A program made the translations under genes and the position numbers. A stretch of DNA of 64,000 nt. Source: Burkholderiales bacterium. GTDB lineage: Bacteria; Pseudomonadota; Gammaproteobacteria; Burkholderiales; SG8-39. The notes below the pieces were generated by a model. It was not told the origin of the DNA and searched no databases. It worked only from the letters and a program-made list of their open reading frames with translations. Location: the NCBI GenBank assembly GCA_026416295.1, contig JAOAFL010000097.1:14671-78670 (forward strand). Reading direction: 5' to 3'. Within the stretch, counting starts at the first letter, position 1; each line of letters begins with the position of its first letter. Positions 12,529 to 48,593 of the stretch are shown here, one piece after another.

Positions 12529-13434
12529 ATGGGCGTCGTCGCGATCGTCGCCGCGCTGATCCTCGAGCAATGGCGCCCGGTGGGCGACCGCAAGGCGGTG
12601 TTCGCGCTCGTCGCCGCGTGGGCCGACTGGCTGGAACGCACGTTCAACGCCGGCGATGCGCGCCACGGCGCGATCGCCTGGGCGATCGCGGTCTCGGTGC
12701 CGGTGGCGGCGGCGCTCGCGCTCCATGCGGCGGCGCTGTGGGCGAGCCCGTTCGCCGCGCTGCTCGTCGACATCGGGGCGCTCTACCTCACGCTCGGGTT
12801 CCGGCAGTTCAGCCACTGGTTTACCGGCATCCAGACCGCGCTGAAGAGCGGCGAAGCCGAGCGCGCGCGCGAGCTGATCGGCGCCTGGCGCGGCGAGCCG
12901 GCCGAACATCGCAGCAGCGAGGAGGTCGCGCGGCTTGCGCTGGAGGAAGCGCTCGTCGCCTCGCACCGTCACGTGTTCGCGGTGCTGTTCTGGTTCGTGC
13001 TCCTTCCGGGCCCGAGCGGCGCGATCCTCTATCGCCTTGCGGCGTTTCTCGCGCGCCGCTGGGCGGGCCTCGGGGCGTTCGGCGAGTTCGCCCAGCGCGC
13101 GCTCTACGCGCTCGAGTGGCCGACCGCGCGGCTGACCGCGGCCGCCTTCGCGGTGGTCGGCGACTTCGAGGACGCGGTGTACTGCTGGCGCACGCAGGCC
13201 GCGGCTTGGTCCGACCGCAATCTCGGCATCGTGCTCGCCGCCGGCGCGGGCGCGATGGGCGTGCGGCTCGGCATGCCGCTCGCCGGCGTCGCGGGGCTGG
13301 AACCCCGGCCGGAACTGGGCGTCGGCGCGCCGGCCGACCCGGCGTTCCTCGACAGCGCGGTCGGCCTGCTCTGGCGCAGCGTGGTGCTCTGGGTGTTCGT
13401 GCTCGCGGTCCTGTCGCTCGTGCGCGCGCTGTAG
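12529..13434 (+). CDS. CobD/CbiB-family membrane protein
   Basis: Hydrophobic segments; FAVLFWFVLLPGPSGAILYRL, AVVGDFEDA, AMGVRLG; usual betaproteobacterial position beside rsgA. Confidence 0.8.
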   Translation: MGVVAIVAALILEQWRPVGDRKAVFALVAAWADWLERTFNAGDARHGAIAWAIAVSVPVAAALALHAAALWASPFAALLVDIGALYLTLGFRQFSHWFTGIQTALKSGEAERARELIGAWRGEPAEHRSSEEVARLALEEALVASHRHVFAVLFWFVLLPGPSGAILYRLAAFLARRWAGLGAFGEFAQRALYALEWPTARLTAAAFAVVGDFEDAVYCWRTQAAAWSDRNLGIVLAAGAGAMGVRLGMPLAGVAGLEPRPELGVGAPADPAFLDSAVGLLWRSVVLWVFVLAVLSLVRAL

Positions 13435-23959: not shown

Positions 23960-24283
23960 ATGGCTTACGTCGTCACGGAAAGCTGCATCAAGTGCAAGTA
24001 CACCGACTGCGTGGACGTCTGCCCGGTCGACTGCTTCCGGGAAGGCCCGAACATGCTGGTGATCGACCCCGACGAGTGCATCGACTGCACGCTGTGCGTG
24101 CCCGAGTGCCCGGTCGAGGCGATCTACGCCGAAGACGACGTGCCCGACGGCCAGCGCGAATGGATCGCGCTCAACCGCGAGCTCGCCGCGCTCTGGAAGC
24201 CGATCATCGAGCGCAAGCCGGCCCCGCCGGACGCGGACGAGTGGGCGAAGGTGCGGGAAAAGAAACACCTCCTCGAGCGATAG
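23960..24283 (+). CDS. fdxA: 7Fe-type (Azotobacter FdI-like) ferredoxin
   Basis: [18 protein letters not shown] and [12 protein letters not shown]. Confidence 0.93.
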
Positions 24284-39098: not shown

Positions 39099-41390
39099 TC
39101 AGCCGCGCTCGTGCTTTCGCTCGAGCGCGCGCCAGACGGTTTCGGGCGTGAGCGGCATCTGCACGTCCTCGACGCCGAGGGCATCGACGATCGCGTTCAT
39201 CACCGCGGCGAGCGCGCCGACCGTGCCCGCCTCGCCCGCGCCCTTTGCGCCGAGCGGGTTGAGCCGCGTCGGCACCGGGTTGTGCCCGAGGCGAAAGCCG
39301 CAGACGTCGGCGGCGCGCGGCATCGCGTAGTCCATGAACGAGGCGGTGAGGAGCTGTCCCGACTCCGGGTCGTAGACGATCTGTTCCATCACGATCTGCC
39401 CGAAGCCCTGAACGATGCCGCCCATCACCTGGCCGGCGAGCGTGAGCGGATTGATCTCGGTGCCGACGTCGTCCACCACCGCGTAGGCGACCGGGGTGAC
39501 CGCGCCGGTCTCCGGGTCGATCTCGACCTCGCAGACGTGCGTGCCGTTCGGAAACGTCTCGGCCGCAGGCGAGAACGCCGCGCGCTCGAAGAGCCCCGGT
39601 TCGACCCCGGGCGGCAGCCGCGCAGGCACGTAGGCGAGGCGCGCGACCTCCGCGAGCGCGATGCCGCGGTCGGTGCCGGCGATGCGGAAGCGCCCGTCGT
39701 CGAAGACGACATCGGCTTCGCTCGCCTCGAGCAGGTGCGCGGCGATGCGCTTCGCCTTGGCGATCACCTTGTCGGCGGCGAGCCAGAGGGCGGTGCCGCC
39801 GATCACCGCCGAGCGCGAGCCGAAGGTGCCGTAGCCGAAGGCGATCGCGTCCGTGTCGCCGTCGGCGACGCGCACCTCGGCCGGATCGAGCCCGAGCCGC
39901 GCGGCGACGATCTGGCGATACATCGTCTCGTGGCCCTGGCCCTGGCTTTTCGTTCCGACGAGCACGCTCGCGCGACCGTCGGGGTCGAAGCGAATCTCGG
40001 CGGTCTCGACGCTCGGGGCGCCGGCGCGCTCGATCGCGTTCGCGAGCCCGATGCCGCGCAGCTTGCCGCGCGCCTGCGCCTGCGCGCGCCGCGCCGCAAA
40101 GCCGTTCCAGTCGGCGAGCGCGAGCGCCTTGTCCATGCCGCGCTCGAACTCGCCGCAGTCGTACGTGAACGTGAGCGCGGTCTTGTACGGCATCGCGGTC
40201 GGCGGAATCAGGTTGCGCCGGCGCAGCTCGACGCGGTCGGCGCCCAGCTCGCGCGCCGCGTCGTCGATCAGCCGCTCGAGGGCGTAGATCGCCTCGGGGC
40301 GACCGCTGCCGCGGTACGGCGCGATCGGATTGCGGTGCGAGAACCGCGTCGTCACGCGCACGTACGCGGCCGGAATCGCGTAGACGCCGACGAGGGAGCC
40401 CAGGTTGGCGAAGCCGGGCATCAGGTTGCGGTCGGAGGAGACGTAGGCGCCCACGTCGTCGGTCTTTTCCGCCCGCAGCGCGAGAAAGCGGTGCTCGCGG
40501 TCGAGCGCGAGCGCGATGTCGAACGCGCAGTCGCGGCCGTGCTCGTCGGCGAGCGGCGCTTCGCTGCGCTCGCAGAGCCACTTCACCGGGCGGCGCAGCC
40601 GGCGCGCGAGCCACAGCACCAGGCGGTGCTCGAGGCTCGTCCAGCCCTTCGCGCCGAACGCGCCGCCGACGTCGCGGCACACGACCCGGATGCGGTGCTC
40701 GGGCACCGCGAGCACGGTCGCGAGCACCTCGCGGATGCGGTGCGGGTACTGCGCGTCGCAGTAAAGCGTGTAGCGCCCTTCGCCCTCGTCCCAGACGCCG
40801 AGCGCGCCGCGCGGCTCCATGAACTGCGCGTGCACGCGCGAGACGGTGTAGCGGCGCTGAACGACGTGCGCGGCACGCGCGAACGCCTGCTCGGTCGCGG
40901 CGCGGTCGCCCAGCTCGAACGCGCAGCAGACGTCGTCGGGGCATTCGTCCCACACGGGCGCCGAGGCGGGCAGCGGCTCGTAGTCGACCGCGACGAGCTC
41001 GGCGGCGTCCTTTGCGAGCGCCGCGGTTTCGGCGACCACCGCGGCGACCGGATCGCCGACGTGCTGCACTTTGCCGCGCGCAAGCCCCGGGTGCGGCCGC
41101 CAGAACATCGGCGTGCCGTCCGGGCGGCTGCGCTTGAGCGTCGGCGCGGTGGTGCGCAGGCCGTCGCGCGCGAGGTCCTCGGCCGTGAATACGCCGAGTA
41201 CGCCGGGTGTGGCGAGCGCCGCGGCGGCGTCCACCGCGACGATGCGCGCGTGCGCATGCGGCGAGCGAACGAGCACCATGTGCGCTTCGCGCGCCAGCTC
41301 CAGGTCGGCGACGAAATGCCCCTCGCCCCGCAGCAGGCGCGCATCCTCGAAGCGGGGGACCGGCTGGCCGATTCCGAATTTCTCGTTCAT
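39099..41390 (-). CDS. Xanthine dehydrogenase-family molybdopterin-binding large subunit (form II CoxL-like)
   Basis: RSPHAHA, VGGAFGAKG, PYRGSGRPEA, QGQGHET, GAKGAGEAG. Confidence 0.92.
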   Translation of the reverse strand: MNEKFGIGQPVPRFEDARLLRGEGHFVADLELAREAHMVLVRSPHAHARIVAVDAAAALATPGVLGVFTAEDLARDGLRTTAPTLKRSRPDGTPMFWRPHPGLARGKVQHVGDPVAAVVAETAALAKDAAELVAVDYEPLPASAPVWDECPDDVCCAFELGDRAATEQAFARAAHVVQRRYTVSRVHAQFMEPRGALGVWDEGEGRYTLYCDAQYPHRIREVLATVLAVPEHRIRVVCRDVGGAFGAKGWTSLEHRLVLWLARRLRRPVKWLCERSEAPLADEHGRDCAFDIALALDREHRFLALRAEKTDDVGAYVSSDRNLMPGFANLGSLVGVYAIPAAYVRVTTRFSHRNPIAPYRGSGRPEAIYALERLIDDAARELGADRVELRRRNLIPPTAMPYKTALTFTYDCGEFERGMDKALALADWNGFAARRAQAQARGKLRGIGLANAIERAGAPSVETAEIRFDPDGRASVLVGTKSQGQGHETMYRQIVAARLGLDPAEVRVADGDTDAIAFGYGTFGSRSAVIGGTALWLAADKVIAKAKRIAAHLLEASEADVVFDDGRFRIAGTDRGIALAEVARLAYVPARLPPGVEPGLFERAAFSPAAETFPNGTHVCEVEIDPETGAVTPVAYAVVDDVGTEINPLTLAGQVMGGIVQGFGQIVMEQIVYDPESGQLLTASFMDYAMPRAADVCGFRLGHNPVPTRLNPLGAKGAGEAGTVGALAAVMNAIVDALGVEDVQMPLTPETVWRALERKHERG

Positions 41391-41519
41391 GGCGCGCCGG
41401 ATTCTAAAAGCGCCGCTGCGCGCGGCCTACCGGCCTTTCGACGCCCCGAGCGGCGGCGGACCGCAGCGCAACCGGCGCAGCCTCGTCGAGCCGCTCGGTG
41501 CACGAGCGCGCGCGCTCGC

Positions 41520-42269
41520 TCAGCCCTGCACCGAGTAGCCGCCGTCCACCGGGATCGCGGCGCCGGTGACGAAGTCCGAGGCGCGGCTTGCGAGAAACAC
41601 CGCGATGCCGGCGAGGTCCGAAGGCTCGCCCCAGCGGCCGGCGGGCGTTCGCGCGAGCACCCGCTCGTAGAGGCCCGCCACCTGCTCGCGCGCGCGGCGC
41701 GTGAGGTCGGTGTCGATCCAGCCCGGCAGCACCGCGTTCACCTGGATGTTGTCTTTCGCCCAGGCGCAGGCGAGTGCGCGCGTGAGCTGCACGATCCCGC
41801 CCTTGGAGGCGGCGTAGGGCGCGGCGAAGGAGGCGCCGAAGAGCGACATCATCGAGCCGACGTTGACGATCTTTCCGCCGCCTGCGCGCTTCATCCGCGG
41901 GTAGGCCGCCTGCGAGAGGAGAAAAGCGCTCGTGAGGTTGGTTTCCAGCACCTCGCGCCATTCCGATGCGGCGTACTCTTGCGGTTGTTTACGGATGTTG
42001 ATGCCGGCGTTGTTGACGAGGATATCGAGCCGCCCGAGCGCGGCCACCGTCCGTTCCACGACCTCGCGACAGGCGGCTTCCTCGCGCAGGTCGGCTTCGA
42101 ACGCGACGCCGCCCAGCTCGCGCGCCGCGGCGGCGTTTTTCCGCGCGTCGCGGCCGACGATCGCAACGCGCGCGCCGGCGGCGGCAAGCCCCCGCGCCAT
42201 GCCCAGGCCGATCCCGCCGTTTCCGCCGGTGACGAGCGCTGCCTTGCCTTCGAGATCGAACAGGTTCAT
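41520..42269 (-). CDS. SDR oxidoreductase (KduD-like)
   Basis: TGGNGGIG, NNAG, YAASK, PGWIDT, VDGG. Confidence 0.92.
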   Translation of the reverse strand: MNLFDLEGKAALVTGGNGGIGLGMARGLAAAGARVAIVGRDARKNAAAARELGGVAFEADLREEAACREVVERTVAALGRLDILVNNAGINIRKQPQEYAASEWREVLETNLTSAFLLSQAAYPRMKRAGGGKIVNVGSMMSLFGASFAAPYAASKGGIVQLTRALACAWAKDNIQVNAVLPGWIDTDLTRRAREQVAGLYERVLARTPAGRWGEPSDLAGIAVFLASRASDFVTGAAIPVDGGYSVQG

Positions 42270-42332
42270 CGCGAGTCCCTCGTCGGTGGGCCGCAGATTT
42301 TAAGCGCGGCGCGCGCGGCTATCATCGCGGCG

Positions 42333-44417
42333 GTGAGGATTTTCTCGAACCGCCGCCGTCCGGTGCACCTCGGGCCGCTGCCGCTCGAGCGCGTGCGGCG
42401 CGCAGCCGCCGTGCCCGACCTTTCCAGGGTCGAGGACGCGTTTCCCGCGCGAAGCCGCACCGCGCTCGGCCGCATCGTGAACGACTACATCGCGCTCTTC
42501 GAGCAGTTCCGCGCCGAGCCTGCGGCCCCCGAGCGCGCGCCGTACCCGCGCGACCCGCAGCGCCTCGCGAACGAACTGAAGGCGAACTGCTACTTTCTCG
42601 ATGCGACGCTCGCCGGCTGCTGCGAGGTGCCGGCGTCGGCCTGGACAGGGCCGAAGCGGCCGGAGGAGCGCTGGGCGCTCGCGATCGCGGTCGAGTTCGG
42701 TCGCGAACCCGATGCGGAGGACCTCGCCGCCCGCTGGGTGCGGGGAAGCGAATACGACTGCGCGCTCCTTCGCGCCGCCGAGATCGCGCTCGTCTGCGCC
42801 TCGTTCCTTCGCCGGCTGGGATTTTCGGCGACCGCGCACACGCGCGATGCGACCGAGGTCTCGCATGCGCGCATCCTCGTCGCCGCCGGGCTTGCGCGCT
42901 GGAAGGAAGGCAGGCTCGTCGCCCCCTTCATCGGCAGCCGCTTCGCCTCGGCGGTCGTCACCACCTCCGAGCCGCTTGCGCCGGATGCGCCGCTCGCTGA
43001 CGGCTTCTTCGACGGCGGGCTCGGCTGGTGGCTCGGGGCAGGCGGCACCGAGACGTGGTGGAACCGGCGGTTTCTTCGCCGCCGGCCGTCGCACGCGGGG
43101 CGCTATCCGATGGAGAAAATCCGCCGCGTCGCCACGCCGACGACGCTCGTCCTGGAAGACGAGGTGCCGCGTGTTCCGAAGCGCGCCAATTTCTTCACCC
43201 GGGCCGCGGCCGGCGACCTCGGCGAGAAAGCGCAGCGCGAGCGCTCGCGCTTCGCCTACAAGACGCCGATCGCCGATGCCTACGTGAAGCTCATTCGCGC
43301 GATGGTGCCGAGGCAGGGCGGCGACTGCGCCCCGGCGCGCGATCCGGCGACCCACGATCCGGCGGCGAACGCCCGAGCGCTCAAGTCGCTCATGTATTTT
43401 CTCGGCGCCGACATGGTCGGGCTGTGCGAAGCGAAGCCCTACTGCTGGTATTCGCACCAGGAGGACGGAACGCCGATCGCGCCGTATCACCGCAACGCCG
43501 CGGTGATGCTCGTGGACCAGGGCTTCGAGACGATGGAGGGCGCCTCGGGCGACGACTGGATCTCGGGCGCGCAGTCCATGCGCGCGTACCTGCGCGGTGC
43601 CGAGATCTGCGGGGTGGCCGCCGCCTTCATCCGCTCGCTCGGCTGGAGCGCGCGCTCGCAGACGAACGCCGATTCCGACGTGGTGCAGCTTCCGCTCGTG
43701 CTGCTCGCGGGGCTCGGCGAGCTTTCGCGCATCGGCGAGCTGGTGCTCAATCCCTTCGTCGGCCCGCGCTTCAAGAGCGCCGTGGTGACCACCGACCTGC
43801 CGCTTGCGCCCGACCGGCCGGTGGACTTCGGACTTCAGGACATGTGCGCGAAATGCAGCAAGTGCGCGCGCGAGTGTCCGTGCAGCGCGATCTCCTTCGG
43901 CGAGAAGGTGATGTTCAACGGCTACGAGATGTGGAAGCCGGATGTCGAGCGCTGCACGCGCTATCGCGTCACCAACCCGCACGGCTCGGCCTGCGGGCGC
44001 TGCATGAAGACCTGCCCGTACAACCACGAGGGGTTGCTCCTGCACCGGGCGTTCCTGTGGGCGGCGATCCGGCTGCCGTGGACGCGGCGCGCGATCGTGC
44101 GCCTCGACGACTGGGTCGGCAACGGCGCGATCAACCCGGTGAAGACCTGGTGGACCGATCTCGAGATCGTCGAGGGCAGGGTGGTGAAGCCGCGCGGCGC
44201 GAACCGCCGGGGCCTTTCGCTCGACAAAGGCACTGCGCCGCCGCCGGGACACCGGATCGCCTACTACCCGGCCGCGGTCAATCCGCCGGCCGATGCGAAG
44301 AATCCGGTGCCGGTGGACAGAAAAGCGGCGCTTTCCGTGCGGCTGGAAACGCCCGAGGAGGCGCGCCGCAGGCGGGGCCTCGCCGCTCAGAGGGGCACGA
44401 GCAGCTCCTCGACGTAG
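42333..44417 (+). CDS. rdhA: Catabolic (non-respiratory) cobalamin-dependent reductive dehalogenase, NpRdhA-like
   Basis: C-terminal 694 aa of track ORF 39111..44417. N-terminus FSNRRRPVHLGPLPLER; duplicated LKxxxYFLxAxxxGxCE module; AGLGELSRIG, GPRFKS, TTDLPL; Fe-S motifs CAKCSKCARECP and C-x12-CGRCMKTCP; no Tat h-region, no rdhB. Confidence 0.9.
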   Translation: MRIFSNRRRPVHLGPLPLERVRRAAAVPDLSRVEDAFPARSRTALGRIVNDYIALFEQFRAEPAAPERAPYPRDPQRLANELKANCYFLDATLAGCCEVPASAWTGPKRPEERWALAIAVEFGREPDAEDLAARWVRGSEYDCALLRAAEIALVCASFLRRLGFSATAHTRDATEVSHARILVAAGLARWKEGRLVAPFIGSRFASAVVTTSEPLAPDAPLADGFFDGGLGWWLGAGGTETWWNRRFLRRRPSHAGRYPMEKIRRVATPTTLVLEDEVPRVPKRANFFTRAAAGDLGEKAQRERSRFAYKTPIADAYVKLIRAMVPRQGGDCAPARDPATHDPAANARALKSLMYFLGADMVGLCEAKPYCWYSHQEDGTPIAPYHRNAAVMLVDQGFETMEGASGDDWISGAQSMRAYLRGAEICGVAAAFIRSLGWSARSQTNADSDVVQLPLVLLAGLGELSRIGELVLNPFVGPRFKSAVVTTDLPLAPDRPVDFGLQDMCAKCSKCARECPCSAISFGEKVMFNGYEMWKPDVERCTRYRVTNPHGSACGRCMKTCPYNHEGLLLHRAFLWAAIRLPWTRRAIVRLDDWVGNGAINPVKTWWTDLEIVEGRVVKPRGANRRGLSLDKGTAPPPGHRIAYYPAAVNPPADAKNPVPVDRKAALSVRLETPEEARRRRGLAAQRGTSSSST

Positions 44418-44977
44418 GGCAGCCGGTCCTGCCCGAAGTGCATCTGGTTTCCGACGAAAAACGTCGGTACGCCGAAGACGCCGCGGCGCACCGCGGCGTC
44501 GGTCGCTGCGCGCAGCGCCTCCTTGATCGCCGGATCCTGCGTCGCCGCGAGGATCCTTTCGCCATCGAGCCCGGCCTCGCCGAGCGTTCTCGACAGCTCC
44601 TGCGGATCGGCGAGGTTGCGCCGCTCGGCCCAGAGCGCGCGGAACACCGCGTCCGAGTACGGCTGGAGAAAGCCCTGCTGCTGCGCGTACAGCGCGCCGC
44701 GCATGAGCCCGAGCGTGTTCACCGGGAAATGCGGATTGCGCGCGAACGGCACGCCGTAGCGCGCGGCGAACCATTGCAGGTCGCGGAACATCCACGCGAG
44801 CTTCGCCGGCACCTCGGCCGGCGAACGGTTGCCGGTCGCCTGGAACACGCCGCCGAGGAGGATCGGGTGGTAGTTCACCCGCGCCCCGGTGCGCCGCGCG
44901 AGCGCCGGCACCTGCGTCCAGGCGAGGTAGGCGGCCGGGCTGCCGTAATCGAAATAGAAGTCGAGCGTCGCGCTCAT
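44387..44977 (-). CDS. 2-hydroxychromene-2-carboxylate isomerase / DsbA-like (GST kappa) protein
   Basis: DFYFDYGSPAAYLA, PILLGGVF, FPVNT, GVFGVPTF, FGQDRL; 3' end overlaps rdhA by 31 nt. Confidence 0.9.
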   Translation of the reverse strand: MSATLDFYFDYGSPAAYLAWTQVPALARRTGARVNYHPILLGGVFQATGNRSPAEVPAKLAWMFRDLQWFAARYGVPFARNPHFPVNTLGLMRGALYAQQQGFLQPYSDAVFRALWAERRNLADPQELSRTLGEAGLDGERILAATQDPAIKEALRAATDAAVRRGVFGVPTFFVGNQMHFGQDRLPYVEELLVPL

Positions 44978-45133
44978 GGCGAACGCCGCAGCAGCGCGAA
45001 CCTTGCGGCGCAAAACGCCGTGTCGGACATCGGGTCACCTCCTCGGCTGCGTATCGAAACCGCGCGCGGCGCGCTGGCGGCGCACCGCCGCTTGGCCTAT
45101 TATCCGCCGACCCCGAACGCAGGAGATGAAACC

Positions 45134-46099
45134 GTGATCCGATCGCTCGCTGCCGTACTCGCGCTCTGGATCGCCGCGGCGCCTGCCGCGGCCGCGCAGG
45201 ACTGGCCGGCCCGTCCGGTGAGCTTCGTCGTGCCGTTCCCGCCCGGCGGATCGGTCGACCCGCTCGCGCGGCTGCTCGCCGGAAAGCTCTCCGAGTCGCT
45301 GCGGCAGCAGTTCATCGTCGAAAACAAGCCCGGCGCCTCCGGCTCGATCGGCGCCGCGCACGTCGCGAAGGCGAAGCCCGACGGCTACACCTGGCTGTTC
45401 GTGTTCGACACGCACGCGGTCAACCCGGCGCTCATCCCGAACCTGCCCTTCGATACCGCAAAAGACTTCGCGCCGGTGATGCTCGTCGGCACCGCGCCGA
45501 TGGCGATCGCGACGCAGACGGCGAAGCCCTACAAGACCTTCGGCGACGTGGTCGCCGCCGCCAAGGCGAAACCCGACACCGTCACCTTCGGCACCGTCGG
45601 CAACGGCTCGCTCGGGCACCTCACGATGGTGCTCGTGCAGCAGGCCGCGGGCATCAAGCTGGTGCATGTGCCCTACAAGGGCGGCGGACCGATGACGGCG
45701 GATGCGATCGGCGGGCAGGTGGAACTCGCGATCGGCTCGGTCGCGGTGATGGCGCCGCACGTAAAGAGCGCGAAGCTGCGCGCGGTCGCGGTGACCGGCG
45801 ACAAGCGCTCGCACGCGATGCCCGATGTGCCGTCGCTCGCGGAGCAGGGCTTTCCGGGGTTTTCGGCGCATGCCTGGTGGGGCATTTTCGGTCCCGCGGG
45901 CACGCCGAAGCCGATCCTCGATCGCCTGCACGCCGAGCTCGTCAAGGCGCTCAATCTGCCGGACGTGCGCAAGACCCTCACCGAGACGCTCGGCATGGAC
46001 CTCGTCGTTTCCAGCCCCGAGGCGTTGCAGCGCTTCCTCCTCGACGAGATGGCGCGCTGGGGCAAGGTGGTGCGCGACCACGGAATCCGGCCCGACTGA
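45134..46099 (+). CDS. Bug/TctC substrate-binding protein
   Basis: SD AGGAG then GTG; signal peptide; PFPPGGSVD, NKPGASG, HVPYKGG. Confidence 0.93.
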   Translation: MIRSLAAVLALWIAAAPAAAAQDWPARPVSFVVPFPPGGSVDPLARLLAGKLSESLRQQFIVENKPGASGSIGAAHVAKAKPDGYTWLFVFDTHAVNPALIPNLPFDTAKDFAPVMLVGTAPMAIATQTAKPYKTFGDVVAAAKAKPDTVTFGTVGNGSLGHLTMVLVQQAAGIKLVHVPYKGGGPMTADAIGGQVELAIGSVAVMAPHVKSAKLRAVAVTGDKRSHAMPDVPSLAEQGFPGFSAHAWWGIFGPAGTPKPILDRLHAELVKALNLPDVRKTLTETLGMDLVVSSPEALQRFLLDEMARWGKVVRDHGIRPD

Positions 46100-46100
46100 C

Positions 46101-47078
46101 GTGCGCGCGGCGGTGCTGGACGACTACCAGCGGCTCGCGGAGTCGCTCGCCGACTGGGGAAGGCTGCGCCGGCGCGGGATCGAGGTCACGGTATTCGACC
46201 GCGCGTTCGCCTCGGAGGACGAGGCGGCGGAAAAACTCGCGCCCTTCGAGATCCTCGTTCTGATGCGCGAGCGAACGCCGTTTCCGCGCTCGCTCGTCGA
46301 GCGGCTGCCGAGGCTGCGCTTCATCGCGCTCACCGGCCTTCGGTCGGCGAGCCTCGATCTTGCCGCCTGCACCGAGCGCAGGATCCCGGTGAGCAACACC
46401 GGCGCCGGCTCGACCTCCGCCGTCACCGCGGAGTTCGCCTTTCTCATGATCCTCGCCGCGGCGCGCGATTTCGCGCGCGCCGTACGCAACATGCGCGCAG
46501 GGCTCTGGCACGAGGGGCTGCGCGGCGGCACGATCCTCGAAGGAAGGCGTCTCGGCGTGATCGGCCTCGGCAAGCTCGGCGCGCGCGTCGCCGGCTACGG
46601 CAAGGCGTTCGGCATGGACGTGGTCGCCTGGAGCCAGAACCTCACGCCCGAGCGCGCGCGCGAGGCAGGCGCCGCGTACGTCTCGAAGGAGGAACTGCTT
46701 CGCACTTCCGACTTCATCACCATCCACCTCGTGCTCTCCGAGCGCACCCGGGGCTTGATCGGCGAACGGGAACTCGGGCTGATGAAGCCCGGCGCCGTGC
46801 TCGTCAACACCTCGCGCGGGCCGATCGTGGACGAAAAAGCGCTCCTTGCCGCGCTCGCCTCCGGGCGCCTTTCCCACGCCGCGCTCGACGTCTACGACAC
46901 CGAGCCGCTTCCCGCCGATCATCCGCTGCGCCGCATGGAGAACGTGACGCTGTCGCCTCATCTCGGCTACGTGAGCGAGGAAGTGCTGCGCACGTTCTGG
47001 ACCGACGCGATCGAGAACGTCGAGGCCTGGCTCGAGGGCCGGCCGATCCGCGTCATGAACCCGGCGGCGCTCGGCTAG
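46101..47078 (+). CDS. D-2-hydroxyacid dehydrogenase family protein
   Basis: VLDDYQ, MRERT, GLGKLG, WSQNLT, NTSRG, DVY, SPHLGY. Confidence 0.92.
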   Translation: MRAAVLDDYQRLAESLADWGRLRRRGIEVTVFDRAFASEDEAAEKLAPFEILVLMRERTPFPRSLVERLPRLRFIALTGLRSASLDLAACTERRIPVSNTGAGSTSAVTAEFAFLMILAAARDFARAVRNMRAGLWHEGLRGGTILEGRRLGVIGLGKLGARVAGYGKAFGMDVVAWSQNLTPERAREAGAAYVSKEELLRTSDFITIHLVLSERTRGLIGERELGLMKPGAVLVNTSRGPIVDEKALLAALASGRLSHAALDVYDTEPLPADHPLRRMENVTLSPHLGYVSEEVLRTFWTDAIENVEAWLEGRPIRVMNPAALG

Positions 47079-47082
47079 CGCC

Positions 47083-47973
47083 TTGGCGCCGCAGCCGCTT
47101 CCGCGCTGGGTCGGGGTGTGCGCGCTCGCCTCGATCTCGGCGCTCTTCGGCTCGAACCATGTCGCTGCGCGCGTCGCGTTCGAGCACGGGGCGAACGTTC
47201 AGACCGCGGTCGCGTTCCGCTCCGCGGGCACCGCGCTCTTCGTGCTCGCGCTGATCCTCGCGCAGCGCGTGCCGCTCGCGCTGCCGCGCGCGACCCTCGC
47301 GCGCGCCGGCGCGATCGGGCTGCTCCTTGCGGTTCAGAGCTATTGCCTGTACTCGGCGGTCGCGCGCATTCCGGTCGCGCTCGCGCTCCTCGCGTTCCAG
47401 ACCTTTCCGATGGTGCTCGCGCTCCTTACCTGGGCGGCCGAAGGCAGGCGGCCGCGGCCGCGCACGCTCGTCGCGATGCCGGTCGCGCTCGCGGGCCTTG
47501 CGCTCGCGCTCGACGCGGCGGGCGCCGGCGGCTCGGTCAAGGAGCGCTGGAACGAGATCGGCGCGGGCGTGCTCTGGGCGAGCGCCGCCTCGCTCGCGTT
47601 CGCCGGGGTGCTCCATCTCACCGAGCGCTGGCTGCCGGCGCTCGATGGCCGGCTGCGCACGCTCGTCATCATGGCGGTGGTCGCCGCGGTGACGATCGTC
47701 GCGAGCGCGGCGACCGCGAGCTTTCGCCTGCCGGCCGACGCGACCGGCTGGGCGGGCCTTGCGCTGCTCACGCTCCTCTATGGCAGCGGCATGATCGCGT
47801 TCTTCGCTGTCCTTCCGCGCGTCGATGCGCTGAACACGTCGTTCGCGCTCAACTTCGAGCCGGTGGCGGTGCTCGCGATCGCCTGGGTCGTGCTCGATCA
47901 GGCGCTCGCGCCGGTGCAGATCCTCGGCATGGCGGTGGTGCTCGGCGCGATCGTGTTCGGAGCGCGAAAGTGA
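47083..47973 (+). CDS. EamA/DMT-family transporter
   Basis: About 10 hydrophobic segments; LNFEPV, LDQALAPVQILG. Confidence 0.85.
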   Translation: MAPQPLPRWVGVCALASISALFGSNHVAARVAFEHGANVQTAVAFRSAGTALFVLALILAQRVPLALPRATLARAGAIGLLLAVQSYCLYSAVARIPVALALLAFQTFPMVLALLTWAAEGRRPRPRTLVAMPVALAGLALALDAAGAGGSVKERWNEIGAGVLWASAASLAFAGVLHLTERWLPALDGRLRTLVIMAVVAAVTIVASAATASFRLPADATGWAGLALLTLLYGSGMIAFFAVLPRVDALNTSFALNFEPVAVLAIAWVVLDQALAPVQILGMAVVLGAIVFGARK

Positions 47974-48593
47974 CGCGGCTCGTGATCGTGCGCCACGGCG
48001 AGACCGCGTGGAACGCGCAGCGCCGCGTGCAGGGGCAGATCGACGTGCCGCTGAACGAGACCGGGCGCAGGCAGGCCGAGGCGCTCGCGGCGGCGCTCGC
48101 CGGCGAGCGCTTGGCCGCGATCTGGTCGAGCGACCTTGCGCGCGCGCGCGAGACCGCGGCCGCCGCGGCGGCGCGGCTTGGCCTTCCGGTGCGGCTCGAA
48201 CCGGCGCTGCGCGAGCGGCACTACGGGATCTTCGAGACGCTCACCTACGCCGAGGCGAAGGCGCGCTATCCGGAGGACTACGCGCGCTTCGAGCGGCGCG
48301 AGCCGGACTACGACTTCCGCACCGGAGAGTCGCTGCGCGCGTTTTACGAGCGCGCGGTCGGCTGCGTGCGCTCGATCGCCGCCCTGCACGCGGGCGAATC
48401 GGTCCTCGTCTTCACCCACGGGGGCGTCCTCGACAAGGTCTATCGGTTCGTGACCGGCATGGCGATCACTGCGCCGCGCGACTTCGCGATCCCGAACTGC
48501 GGCATCAACCGCCTCGCCGCGGATCCGTGGCGGATCCTCGTCTGGGCGGACGTTTCGCACCTCGAATCCGCGCTCGACGATCTGCCGGAATAG
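47970..48593 (+). CDS. Histidine phosphatase family protein (GpmB/CobC-like)
   Basis: RHGETAWN, SSDLARA, LRERHYG, THGG; GTG overlaps the upstream stop. Confidence 0.9.
   Translation: MTRLVIVRHGETAWNAQRRVQGQIDVPLNETGRRQAEALAAALAGERLAAIWSSDLARARETAAAAAARLGLPVRLEPALRERHYGIFETLTYAEAKARYPEDYARFERREPDYDFRTGESLRAFYERAVGCVRSIAALHAGESVLVFTHGGVLDKVYRFVTGMAITAPRDFAIPNCGINRLAADPWRILVWADVSHLESALDDLPE

Follow-up and report, generated by a model that had tools for sequence, protein, structure and literature searches.

The catabolic reductive dehalogenases closest to the protein described here are NpRdhA, from a marine alphaproteobacterium, and the self-sufficient enzymes BhbA of Comamonas sp. 7D-2 and JtRdhA of Jhaorihella thermophila. 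According to PMC10463259, a catabolic RdhA clade devoid of a reductase domain has already been described, a degenerate N-terminal copy of the cobalamin domain is present in both NpRdhA and JtRdhA, and NpRdhA is reported with ferredoxin and ferredoxin-reductase neighbours. We analysed a 64,000-nt stretch (the window) of contig JAOAFL010000097.1, which belongs to a betaproteobacterial metagenome-assembled genome (MAG) of the order Burkholderiales, and found in it a gene, rdhA, extending from a GTG at 42333 to 44417 on the plus strand (stop codon included) and encoding 694 amino acids. We are confident that its product is a soluble, cytoplasmic catabolic reductive dehalogenase dependent on cobalamin and two [4Fe-4S] clusters, which belongs to the 'truncated' (reductase-less) subfamily of NpRdhA and is likely to act on ortho-halophenolic compounds.

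As pointed out in a previous annotation made from the letters alone (hereafter the sequence-only reading), rdhA is concealed in a 1768-aa open frame (39111..44417, plus strand), and both the list of open reading frames (ORFs) and the translation from GTG 42333 bear this out. The first ~1070 codons of this long frame are antisense to two well-supported minus-strand genes, one of the XDH family (39099-41390) and one of the SDR family (41520-42269), and the GC content of the window amounts to 71.3%; upstream of rdhA, the open frame is therefore an artefact of high GC content. The start coordinate previously proposed, 42320, corresponds to a TATCAT hexamer and has to be replaced by 42333. This choice is based on the fact that residues 1-15 of RdhA match NpRdhA position by position from residue 1 onward and that the N-terminus also aligns with the first residues of eight orthologues. 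Direct reading revealed no in-frame ATG, GTG or TTG other than GTG 42333 between the start of the SDR gene and this position. The GC content of rdhA (70.6%, versus 71.3% for the window) indicates a native composition, its codon-position GC is typical for local genes, and no tRNA gene that could mark an integration event was found in the 64-kb window.

The assignment to the NpRdhA subfamily was supported by sequence, profile and fold. When PDB sequences were searched with phmmer, the best matches were the NpRdhA chains 4RAS, 6ZXU and 6ZY0 (E 1.4e-208 to 8.5e-208), and the match to 4RAS (E 1.4e-208) covered the full length of the protein (residues 1-681 versus 1-693 of 4RAS). The NCBIfam profile for reductive dehalogenases, TIGR02486, gave 184.1 bits (cut-off 160.35), and the only Pfam match on RdhA was a sub-threshold one to Fer4_7. 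An AlphaFold2 model computed with 55 homologues as input had a mean predicted local distance difference test score (pLDDT) of 89.7 and a predicted template modelling score (pTM) of 0.93, and was confident up to residue 689. With this model as query, the first 14 ranks of a Foldseek search of the PDB were all occupied by NpRdhA entries, with template modelling (TM) scores of 0.93-0.94 (0.94 for 6ZXX/4RAS) and root-mean-square deviations of 2.4-2.8 over ~700 columns, at 50% identity. Together with the active-site residues described below, these tests all supported the earlier proposal of a stand-alone, NpRdhA-type catabolic enzyme. Length and domain order (a degenerate cobalamin-domain copy, a functional cobalamin domain and two [4Fe-4S] clusters) are likewise those of NpRdhA.

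The anatomy of the protein agreed on each point with what had been proposed. The segments LKANCYFLDATLAGCCE (residues 82-98) and LKSLMYFLGADMVGLCE (residues 350-366), previously taken as the vestigial and the functional copy of a cobalamin-binding module, belong to an internal duplication of ~200 residues (40-227 versus 304-506; 37% identity, E 7e-29). Where the C-terminal copy has S415, Y419 and K481, the N-terminal copy has Y141, L145 and A205 and is thus catalytically degenerate. The two predicted [4Fe-4S] motifs are present as C505-x2-C508-x2-C511-x3-C515-P (CxxCxxCxxxCP, 505-516) and as C541 followed by C554-x2-C557-x3-C561-P (CxxCxxxCP, 554-562). No Tat h-region or membrane helix was detected by hydropathy over the whole of RdhA, the Kyte-Doolittle maxima being 1.43 (19-residue mean, whole protein) and 1.02 (12-residue mean, first 70 residues). 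Similarly, no Fer2, FAD or NAD domain was matched in the 694 residues, so that RdhA shares with BhbA and JtRdhA the catabolic branch, the duplicated cobalamin domain and the Tyr/Lys/Arg residues (as described for them in PMC10463259), but not their C-terminal phthalate-dioxygenase-reductase-like (PDOR-like) FMN/[2Fe-2S] domain. The gaps separating rdhA and the genes around it measure 63 nt, -31 nt (an overlap), 120 nt and then ~1 and 4 nt, and all neighbours could be assigned; hence there is no room for an rdhB gene. The absence of a Tat peptide, of an adjacent rdhB and of a fused reductase is also a feature of NpRdhA.

The putative active site comprises S415 and Y419 (in SMRAY), K481 (in PRFK) and R545 (in CTRYR). 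In the alignment with 4RAS, whose chain numbering was counted by hand, these residues stand opposite S422, Y426, K488 and R552, with the spacing of 4, 62 and 64 residues that had been noted before and that is the same in both proteins. None of the four, nor any of the eight cluster cysteines, varied in an alignment of 55 homologues (54-80% identity), which had been picked from 120 listed homologues to span the identity range; the last ~10 residues of RdhA are not conserved. As described in PMC7565698, K488, R552 and S422 of NpRdhA bind the substrate hydroxyl and Y426 is the proton donor, F290, F310, P311, A419 and M423 form a hydrophobic wall, F291 and N452 are movable, and K307 makes a salt bridge with the substrate carboxylate at the pocket entrance. 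The same source indicates that A419 lines the niche of the second, non-ligating bromine and that the A419M mutation shifts the preference to mono-halogenated substrates. Mapping the residues so described onto the 4RAS alignment showed that 9 of these 12 positions are identical in RdhA (F290, F291, F310, S422, M423, Y426, N452, K488 and R552, in NpRdhA numbering), the differences being K307R, P311A and A419G. Among the 55 homologues, the P311A change is invariant and A419G nearly so. From this comparison of sequences we infer that A419G and P311A may create a somewhat roomier niche, still compatible with di-halogenated 4-hydroxy-aromatic acids.

The substrate is likely a 4-hydroxy-aromatic acid or a phenol that carries bromine or chlorine in the ortho position. 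The solved NpRdhA complexes suggest how the reaction could proceed. Electrons from an external low-potential carrier would pass through the two [4Fe-4S] clusters to the corrin cobalt, which would contact the halogen ortho to the phenolic hydroxyl. S415, K481 and R545 would hold this hydroxyl, and Y419, paired with K481, would protonate the carbon while the halide departs. Uptake of the substrate might be aided by an adjacent TctC solute-binding protein and/or an EamA transporter (see below), and the corrinoid would probably be scavenged rather than synthesised.

The local gene order is SDR (-), rdhA (+), DsbA-like (-), tctC (+), 2HADH (+), eamA (+) and histidine phosphatase (+); the features are listed in Table 1. 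The tctC gene, which was absent from a first round of Pfam searches and from the sequence-only reading, was exposed by framing based on GC content at third codon positions (GC3), as it is concealed under spurious long frames on both strands (43028..46099, plus; 45035..46081, minus). Orthologues of tctC (62-68% identity) adjoin rdhA in loci L018, L010, L004, L005, L012 and L013; a fragment of 97 residues is all that L014 contains, and L011 lacks the gene. Of the 8 other loci whose flank could be read, 6 show the rdhA-tctC-eamA linkage as well, and eamA and the phosphatase gene come next in most of the loci that bear tctC. From this linkage, one may suspect that a transporter of the tripartite tricarboxylate (TTT) type or of the drug/metabolite (DMT) type supplies the enzyme with a carboxylate substrate. 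A limited literature search did not yield a published link between RdhA and TctC. Such a linkage, and the nature of the host, distinguish the locus from that of NpRdhA. In the closest named locus (L018, 79% identity) the same order is found without the DsbA-like gene, which, in the comparison of 9 loci, was seen in no genome but this one and which matched no NCBIfam name. Its absence from the 8 related loci makes it look like a lineage-specific insertion. The overlap of this gene with rdhA covers the non-conserved last 31 nt of the latter, and the search for a terminator between the two genes gave a single weak minus-strand site, not above shuffled sequences. Downstream of the SDR gene, a gene for an XDH/CODH-family molybdenum-binding large subunit is present (39099-41390, minus strand), and no gene for a FAD or [2Fe-2S] subunit was found near it among the adjacent ORFs scanned.

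Table 1. Position and characteristics of rdhA, its modules and other features of the window
Feature	Position	Strand	Remarks
fdxA, 7Fe-type ferredoxin	23960-24283	+	NF045490, 163 bits (cut-off 135)
SDR-family oxidoreductase	41520..42269	-	divergent to rdhA, also in L011 (81% identity) and L018 (72%)
Divergent SDR/rdhA intergenic region, 63 nt	42270..42332	.	no Shine-Dalgarno sequence before GTG
TATCAT hexamer, candidate -10 box	42320..42325	+	7 nt before GTG; reverse complement ATGATA = minus-strand -35
rdhA, NpRdhA-type catabolic reductive dehalogenase	42333..44417	+	sequence, profile, fold
Degenerate N-terminal copy of cobalamin-binding module, residues 40-227	42450..43013	+	internal alignment
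Predicted functional cobalamin-binding/active-site module, residues 304-506, with S415, Y419, K481	43242..43850	+	alignment, conservation
Two [4Fe-4S] cysteine motifs and R545, residues 505-562	43845..44018	+	motif, conservation
DsbA-like thioredoxin-fold gene	44387..45013	-	convergent with rdhA; overlaps its 3' end by 31 nt
tctC, TctC/Bug-family periplasmic solute-binding protein	45134..46099	+	GTG start, AGGAG 8 nt upstream, signal-peptide-like N-terminus
D-isomer-specific 2-hydroxyacid dehydrogenase (2HADH)	46101..47078	+	start GTG 46101 or 46113
eamA, EamA-family (DMT) transporter	47083..47973	+	joined to rdhA-tctC in L018, L010, L012, L013, L014
Histidine-phosphatase-family gene	47970-48590	+	after eamA

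Comparison of the loci also revealed that two non-sister rdhA lineages occupy one site, since L012, L013 and L014 (from genomes G012, G021 and G023 of the same genus) encode proteins with 53-54% identity to RdhA, versus 76-79% for those of L010 and L018, which group with the window. The 53-54% lineage sits in the same chromosomal place, but is divergent to tctC, and the flanking genes are similarly diverged in both sets (62-68% identity for tctC, 58-69% for eamA). On the basis of these sequences, the situation points to gene replacement or, alternatively, to ancient paralogy followed by differential loss.

RdhA has a large number of relatives. A word-indexed search yielded 5005 homologous proteins at E<=1e-10 among 8000 candidates scored; ~78 of the 120 homologues listed displayed 73-80% identity, and many were already named 'reductive dehalogenase', including a 'MAG: reductive dehalogenase domain-containing protein [Burkholderiales bacterium]'. 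In species-representative genomes, we counted at least 567 related loci (600 stretches were matched by pattern, of which 567 code for a relative), with Burkholderiales, many Alphaproteobacteria, Acidimicrobiia, Gemmatimonadota, Rokubacteria and Entotheonella as hosts among the loci listed. Within the genus, a strong match was found in 11 of 24 other genomes, 7 of them at 71-82% identity and 4 at 54-56%. One more genome, G020, holds no more than a 134-residue fragment with a TGA (G020:C5:17559-17951), and the match in G005 is in two pieces with a TGA (G005:C56:5795-7851); these remnants may reflect gene decay or assembly errors. Sixteen genomes of the same order outside the genus provided weak matches alone (E 3e-5 to 5e-4; frames of 298-451 aa), which we take to be QueG. 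RdhAs of 'Burkholderiales bacterium JOSHI_001', Noviherbaspirillum sp. Root189, Ottowia thiooxydans and Comamonas are already included in the tree of PMC10463259. In view of the size of the family, of the many members already named and of these published Burkholderiales proteins, RdhA is an ordinary added member of a known family, and the novelty earlier attached to finding a stand-alone enzyme of this type in an aerobic betaproteobacterium was overstated.

In a FastTree phylogeny of 82 rows, from which L024 (532 aa recovered), L039 and L097 (a stop inside the tblastn segment) had been dropped, RdhA belonged to a clade of 7 rows (local support 100%) that is sister (99%) to a clade of 4 Burkholderiales rows. 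The members of the clade of 7 are Burkholderiales- or Betaproteobacteria-labelled MAGs or genomes of the same genus, except for one 'uncultured Enterobacteriaceae', a name assigned by an automated pipeline. The 54-56% proteins of the genus (G012, G021, G023) grouped elsewhere, with Xanthobacteraceae and Rhizobium rows. No donor is claimed, as the root of the tree is a midpoint used for drawing only. Three loci (L018, L024 and L035) are titled 'uncultured Enterobacteriaceae bacterium' while clustering, and showing the same gene order, as Burkholderiales rows; these labels are probably automated misassignments.

Oxygen-tolerant catabolic RdhAs are sought both as tools for bioremediation and as model enzymes in which B12-dependent dehalogenation can be studied with ease. 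To this group, RdhA adds a betaproteobacterial clade with a pocket that the P311A and A419G changes would slightly enlarge, and the linked solute-binding protein could disclose the natural substrate. Knowledge of the family itself is unchanged, since both the architecture and the residues, as well as the existence of such enzymes in aerobes that are not organohalide respirers, had been published before. The additions are modest. They are the linkage to tctC and eamA, the substitutions in the pocket, the occupation of one locus by two rdhA lineages, a genome context that suggests corrinoid scavenging, and a comparison of loci that favours a leader that is very short or absent.

We considered the possibility that RdhA is a respiratory enzyme serving organohalide respiration, or a QueG epoxyqueuosine reductase (or a QueG-like tRNA-modifying enzyme), rather than a catabolic dehalogenase. 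The general reductive dehalogenase profile TIGR02486 is matched, and the next-best PDB family after NpRdhA is that of the respiratory enzymes, i.e. PceA of Sulfurospirillum multivorans (4UQU) and the reductive dehalogenase (RDH) complex 8Q4H (E 1e-26 to 1e-25; local E 1.7e-26, 5.8e-25), with which RdhA shares the cobalamin/two-[4Fe-4S] core and the tyrosine proton donor. Yet, this likeness is confined to the C-terminal part, and the TM scores to PceA and the chains of the RDH complex are 0.35-0.38, versus 0.94 to NpRdhA. Furthermore, the respiratory enzymes carry a Tat signal, are anchored in the membrane by RdhB and have no N-terminal duplicate; RdhA has neither a Tat signal or h-region, nor a transmembrane segment, nor space for rdhB, its duplicated N-terminal domain is of the catabolic type, and the genome encodes two heme-copper oxidases (554 and 403 bits). 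A respiratory function, which we rejected on duplication, hydropathy, gaps and TM score, is thus very improbable. QueG, which belongs to the same class-III cobalamin enzyme superfamily, is even harder to credit. The local likeness to it is weak (22.7 bits with TIGR00276, E 0.0016-0.0077 for the PDB sequences of QueG), the profile score is far under the cut-off of 200 bits, and the TM scores (5D08, 5D6S) are 0.17-0.21. Moreover, the same genome has a true QueG of its own (C124:27681-28688, 490 bits). Profile score, fold and this separate QueG led us to reject the identification with QueG, a placement that the sequence-only reading had named as the one to look for against its proposal; the best placement is with NpRdhA.

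Another explanation would be that the NpRdhA fold serves a different physiological substrate, either an organohalide of another class or a compound without halogen that cob(I)alamin chemistry would reduce. RdhA departs from NpRdhA at three of the 12 pocket positions, the clade is ~50% identical to NpRdhA and has no characterised member, and the SDR, 2HADH and DsbA-like neighbours do not make up a recognisable hydroxybenzoate pathway. However, all four residues involved in hydroxyl binding and proton donation are invariant, the changes are to smaller or similar residues, and the hydrophobic wall formed by F290, F291, F310 and M423 is kept, so that we regard a different type of substrate as unlikely. 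It is still less probable, though slightly more so than a respiratory role, that rdhA is intact but silent or decaying, for instance as a result of scarce corrinoid or of the severing of rdhA from tctC by the DsbA-like insertion. The 31-nt overlap with the latter gene, the unconserved last residues, the TGA-containing remnants in G020 and G005 and the lack of rdhA in about half of the genomes of the genus would fit this idea. Against it, the frame is open over its full length, the invariant residues are kept, codon-position GC is typical and the structural model is confident almost to the C-terminus (residue 689). The assignment as a functional catabolic reductive dehalogenase acting on ortho-halophenolics therefore appears preferable to these alternatives.

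Several observations weigh against this assignment or against parts of it. The K307R, P311A and A419G changes could shift the substrate range. The proximity of tctC (within 3 kb of rdhA) was observed in only 2 of 80 named loci, the linkage being confined to the genus and its nearest relatives. As to the electron donor, no ferredoxin or ferredoxin reductase gene adjoins rdhA, which differs in this respect from NpRdhA, and tblastn with the FdxA, phthalate-dioxygenase-reductase-like (PDR-like) and Fpr-like proteins of this same genome as queries disclosed no match within 3 kb of rdhA in any of the 80 related loci, with a filter (>=50% query coverage, E<=1e-8) that short or divergent ferredoxins could escape. 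CobN, CobS and CobA/BtuR were not found in the assembly, which is 94% complete, so that their absence is no proof of auxotrophy, and a CobD/CbiB-like ORF is present (12583-13362, plus strand, = G000:C122:27253-28032; 86 bits), which may represent a salvage step or a non-B12 paralogue.

The electron and corrinoid supply can be outlined from the rest of the genome. The product of fdxA, advanced earlier as a candidate donor, is a genuine proteobacterial FdxA; its gene, however, sits among rho and trxA, 18 kb from rdhA, without linkage to the latter, and is of the housekeeping type. The search for a ferredoxin reductase that had been advised was productive, as contig C88 encodes a 401-aa Fer2-FAD-NAD (PDR-like) reductase and contig C32 a 246-aa Fpr-like protein. 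The search for cobamide genes, also advised, had a mixed outcome, with genes of the uptake and salvage type and without the three Cob proteins mentioned above. Three proteins with a B12-binding domain scored above the cut-off, and a PduO-type adenosyltransferase is present. A cobalamin riboswitch lies at the extreme end of contig C31 (G000:C31:16565-16746, L009), and contig C94 opens (G000:C94:1-2014, L015) with the C-terminal part of a BtuB-like TonB-dependent receptor (81 bits, below cut-off), after which come an unassigned 172-aa gene and one for a BtuF-like periplasmic binding protein; C31 and C94 may be neighbours. The simplest reading is that corrinoid is taken up and salvaged, i.e. that the genome is that of a B12 scavenger.

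The sequence-only reading had also proposed that rdhA is translated from a leaderless mRNA. No Shine-Dalgarno sequence precedes the GTG in the 63-nt intergenic region, which is ~45 nt long in L011. Of eight distinct orthologous loci, five (the window, L010, L004, L006 and L020) have a TAnnAT hexamer (TATCAT, TATGAT or TACCAT) located 6-7 nt ahead of the start codon, two (L018 and L021) have it 14-15 nt ahead, and L011 lacks it. As the upstream neighbours vary among these eight loci, the hexamer can be argued to be under selection. A consensus scan of the region upstream of rdhA did not find any promoter on the plus strand. The only consensus promoter there is a minus-strand site, ATGATA-17-TAAAAT, which would serve the SDR gene and whose -35 element is the reverse complement of the hexamer; this counts against the leaderless proposal. 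On these sequence features, we are evenly divided as to whether the mRNA is leaderless or near-leaderless.

It is conceivable, though we put it forward tentatively and find it rather doubtful as a whole, that rdhA, tctC, the 2HADH gene and eamA form a dedicated module by which aerobic, corrinoid-scavenging Burkholderiales import and dehalogenate a natural halogenated aromatic carboxylate. In such a module, rdhA would have a leaderless or near-leaderless transcript, and the uptake locus would have stayed fixed while substrate specificity was swapped by exchange of the two rdhA lineages.

The presence of the two heme-copper oxidases agrees with an aerobic way of life. As to habitat, two public runs from two studies, containing 0.92 and 0.68 of the sampled words of 41500-46100, are labelled 'hot springs metagenome'. 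This is a hint at a hot-spring habitat, bearing in mind that one of the runs may be the assembly's own source and hence not independent.

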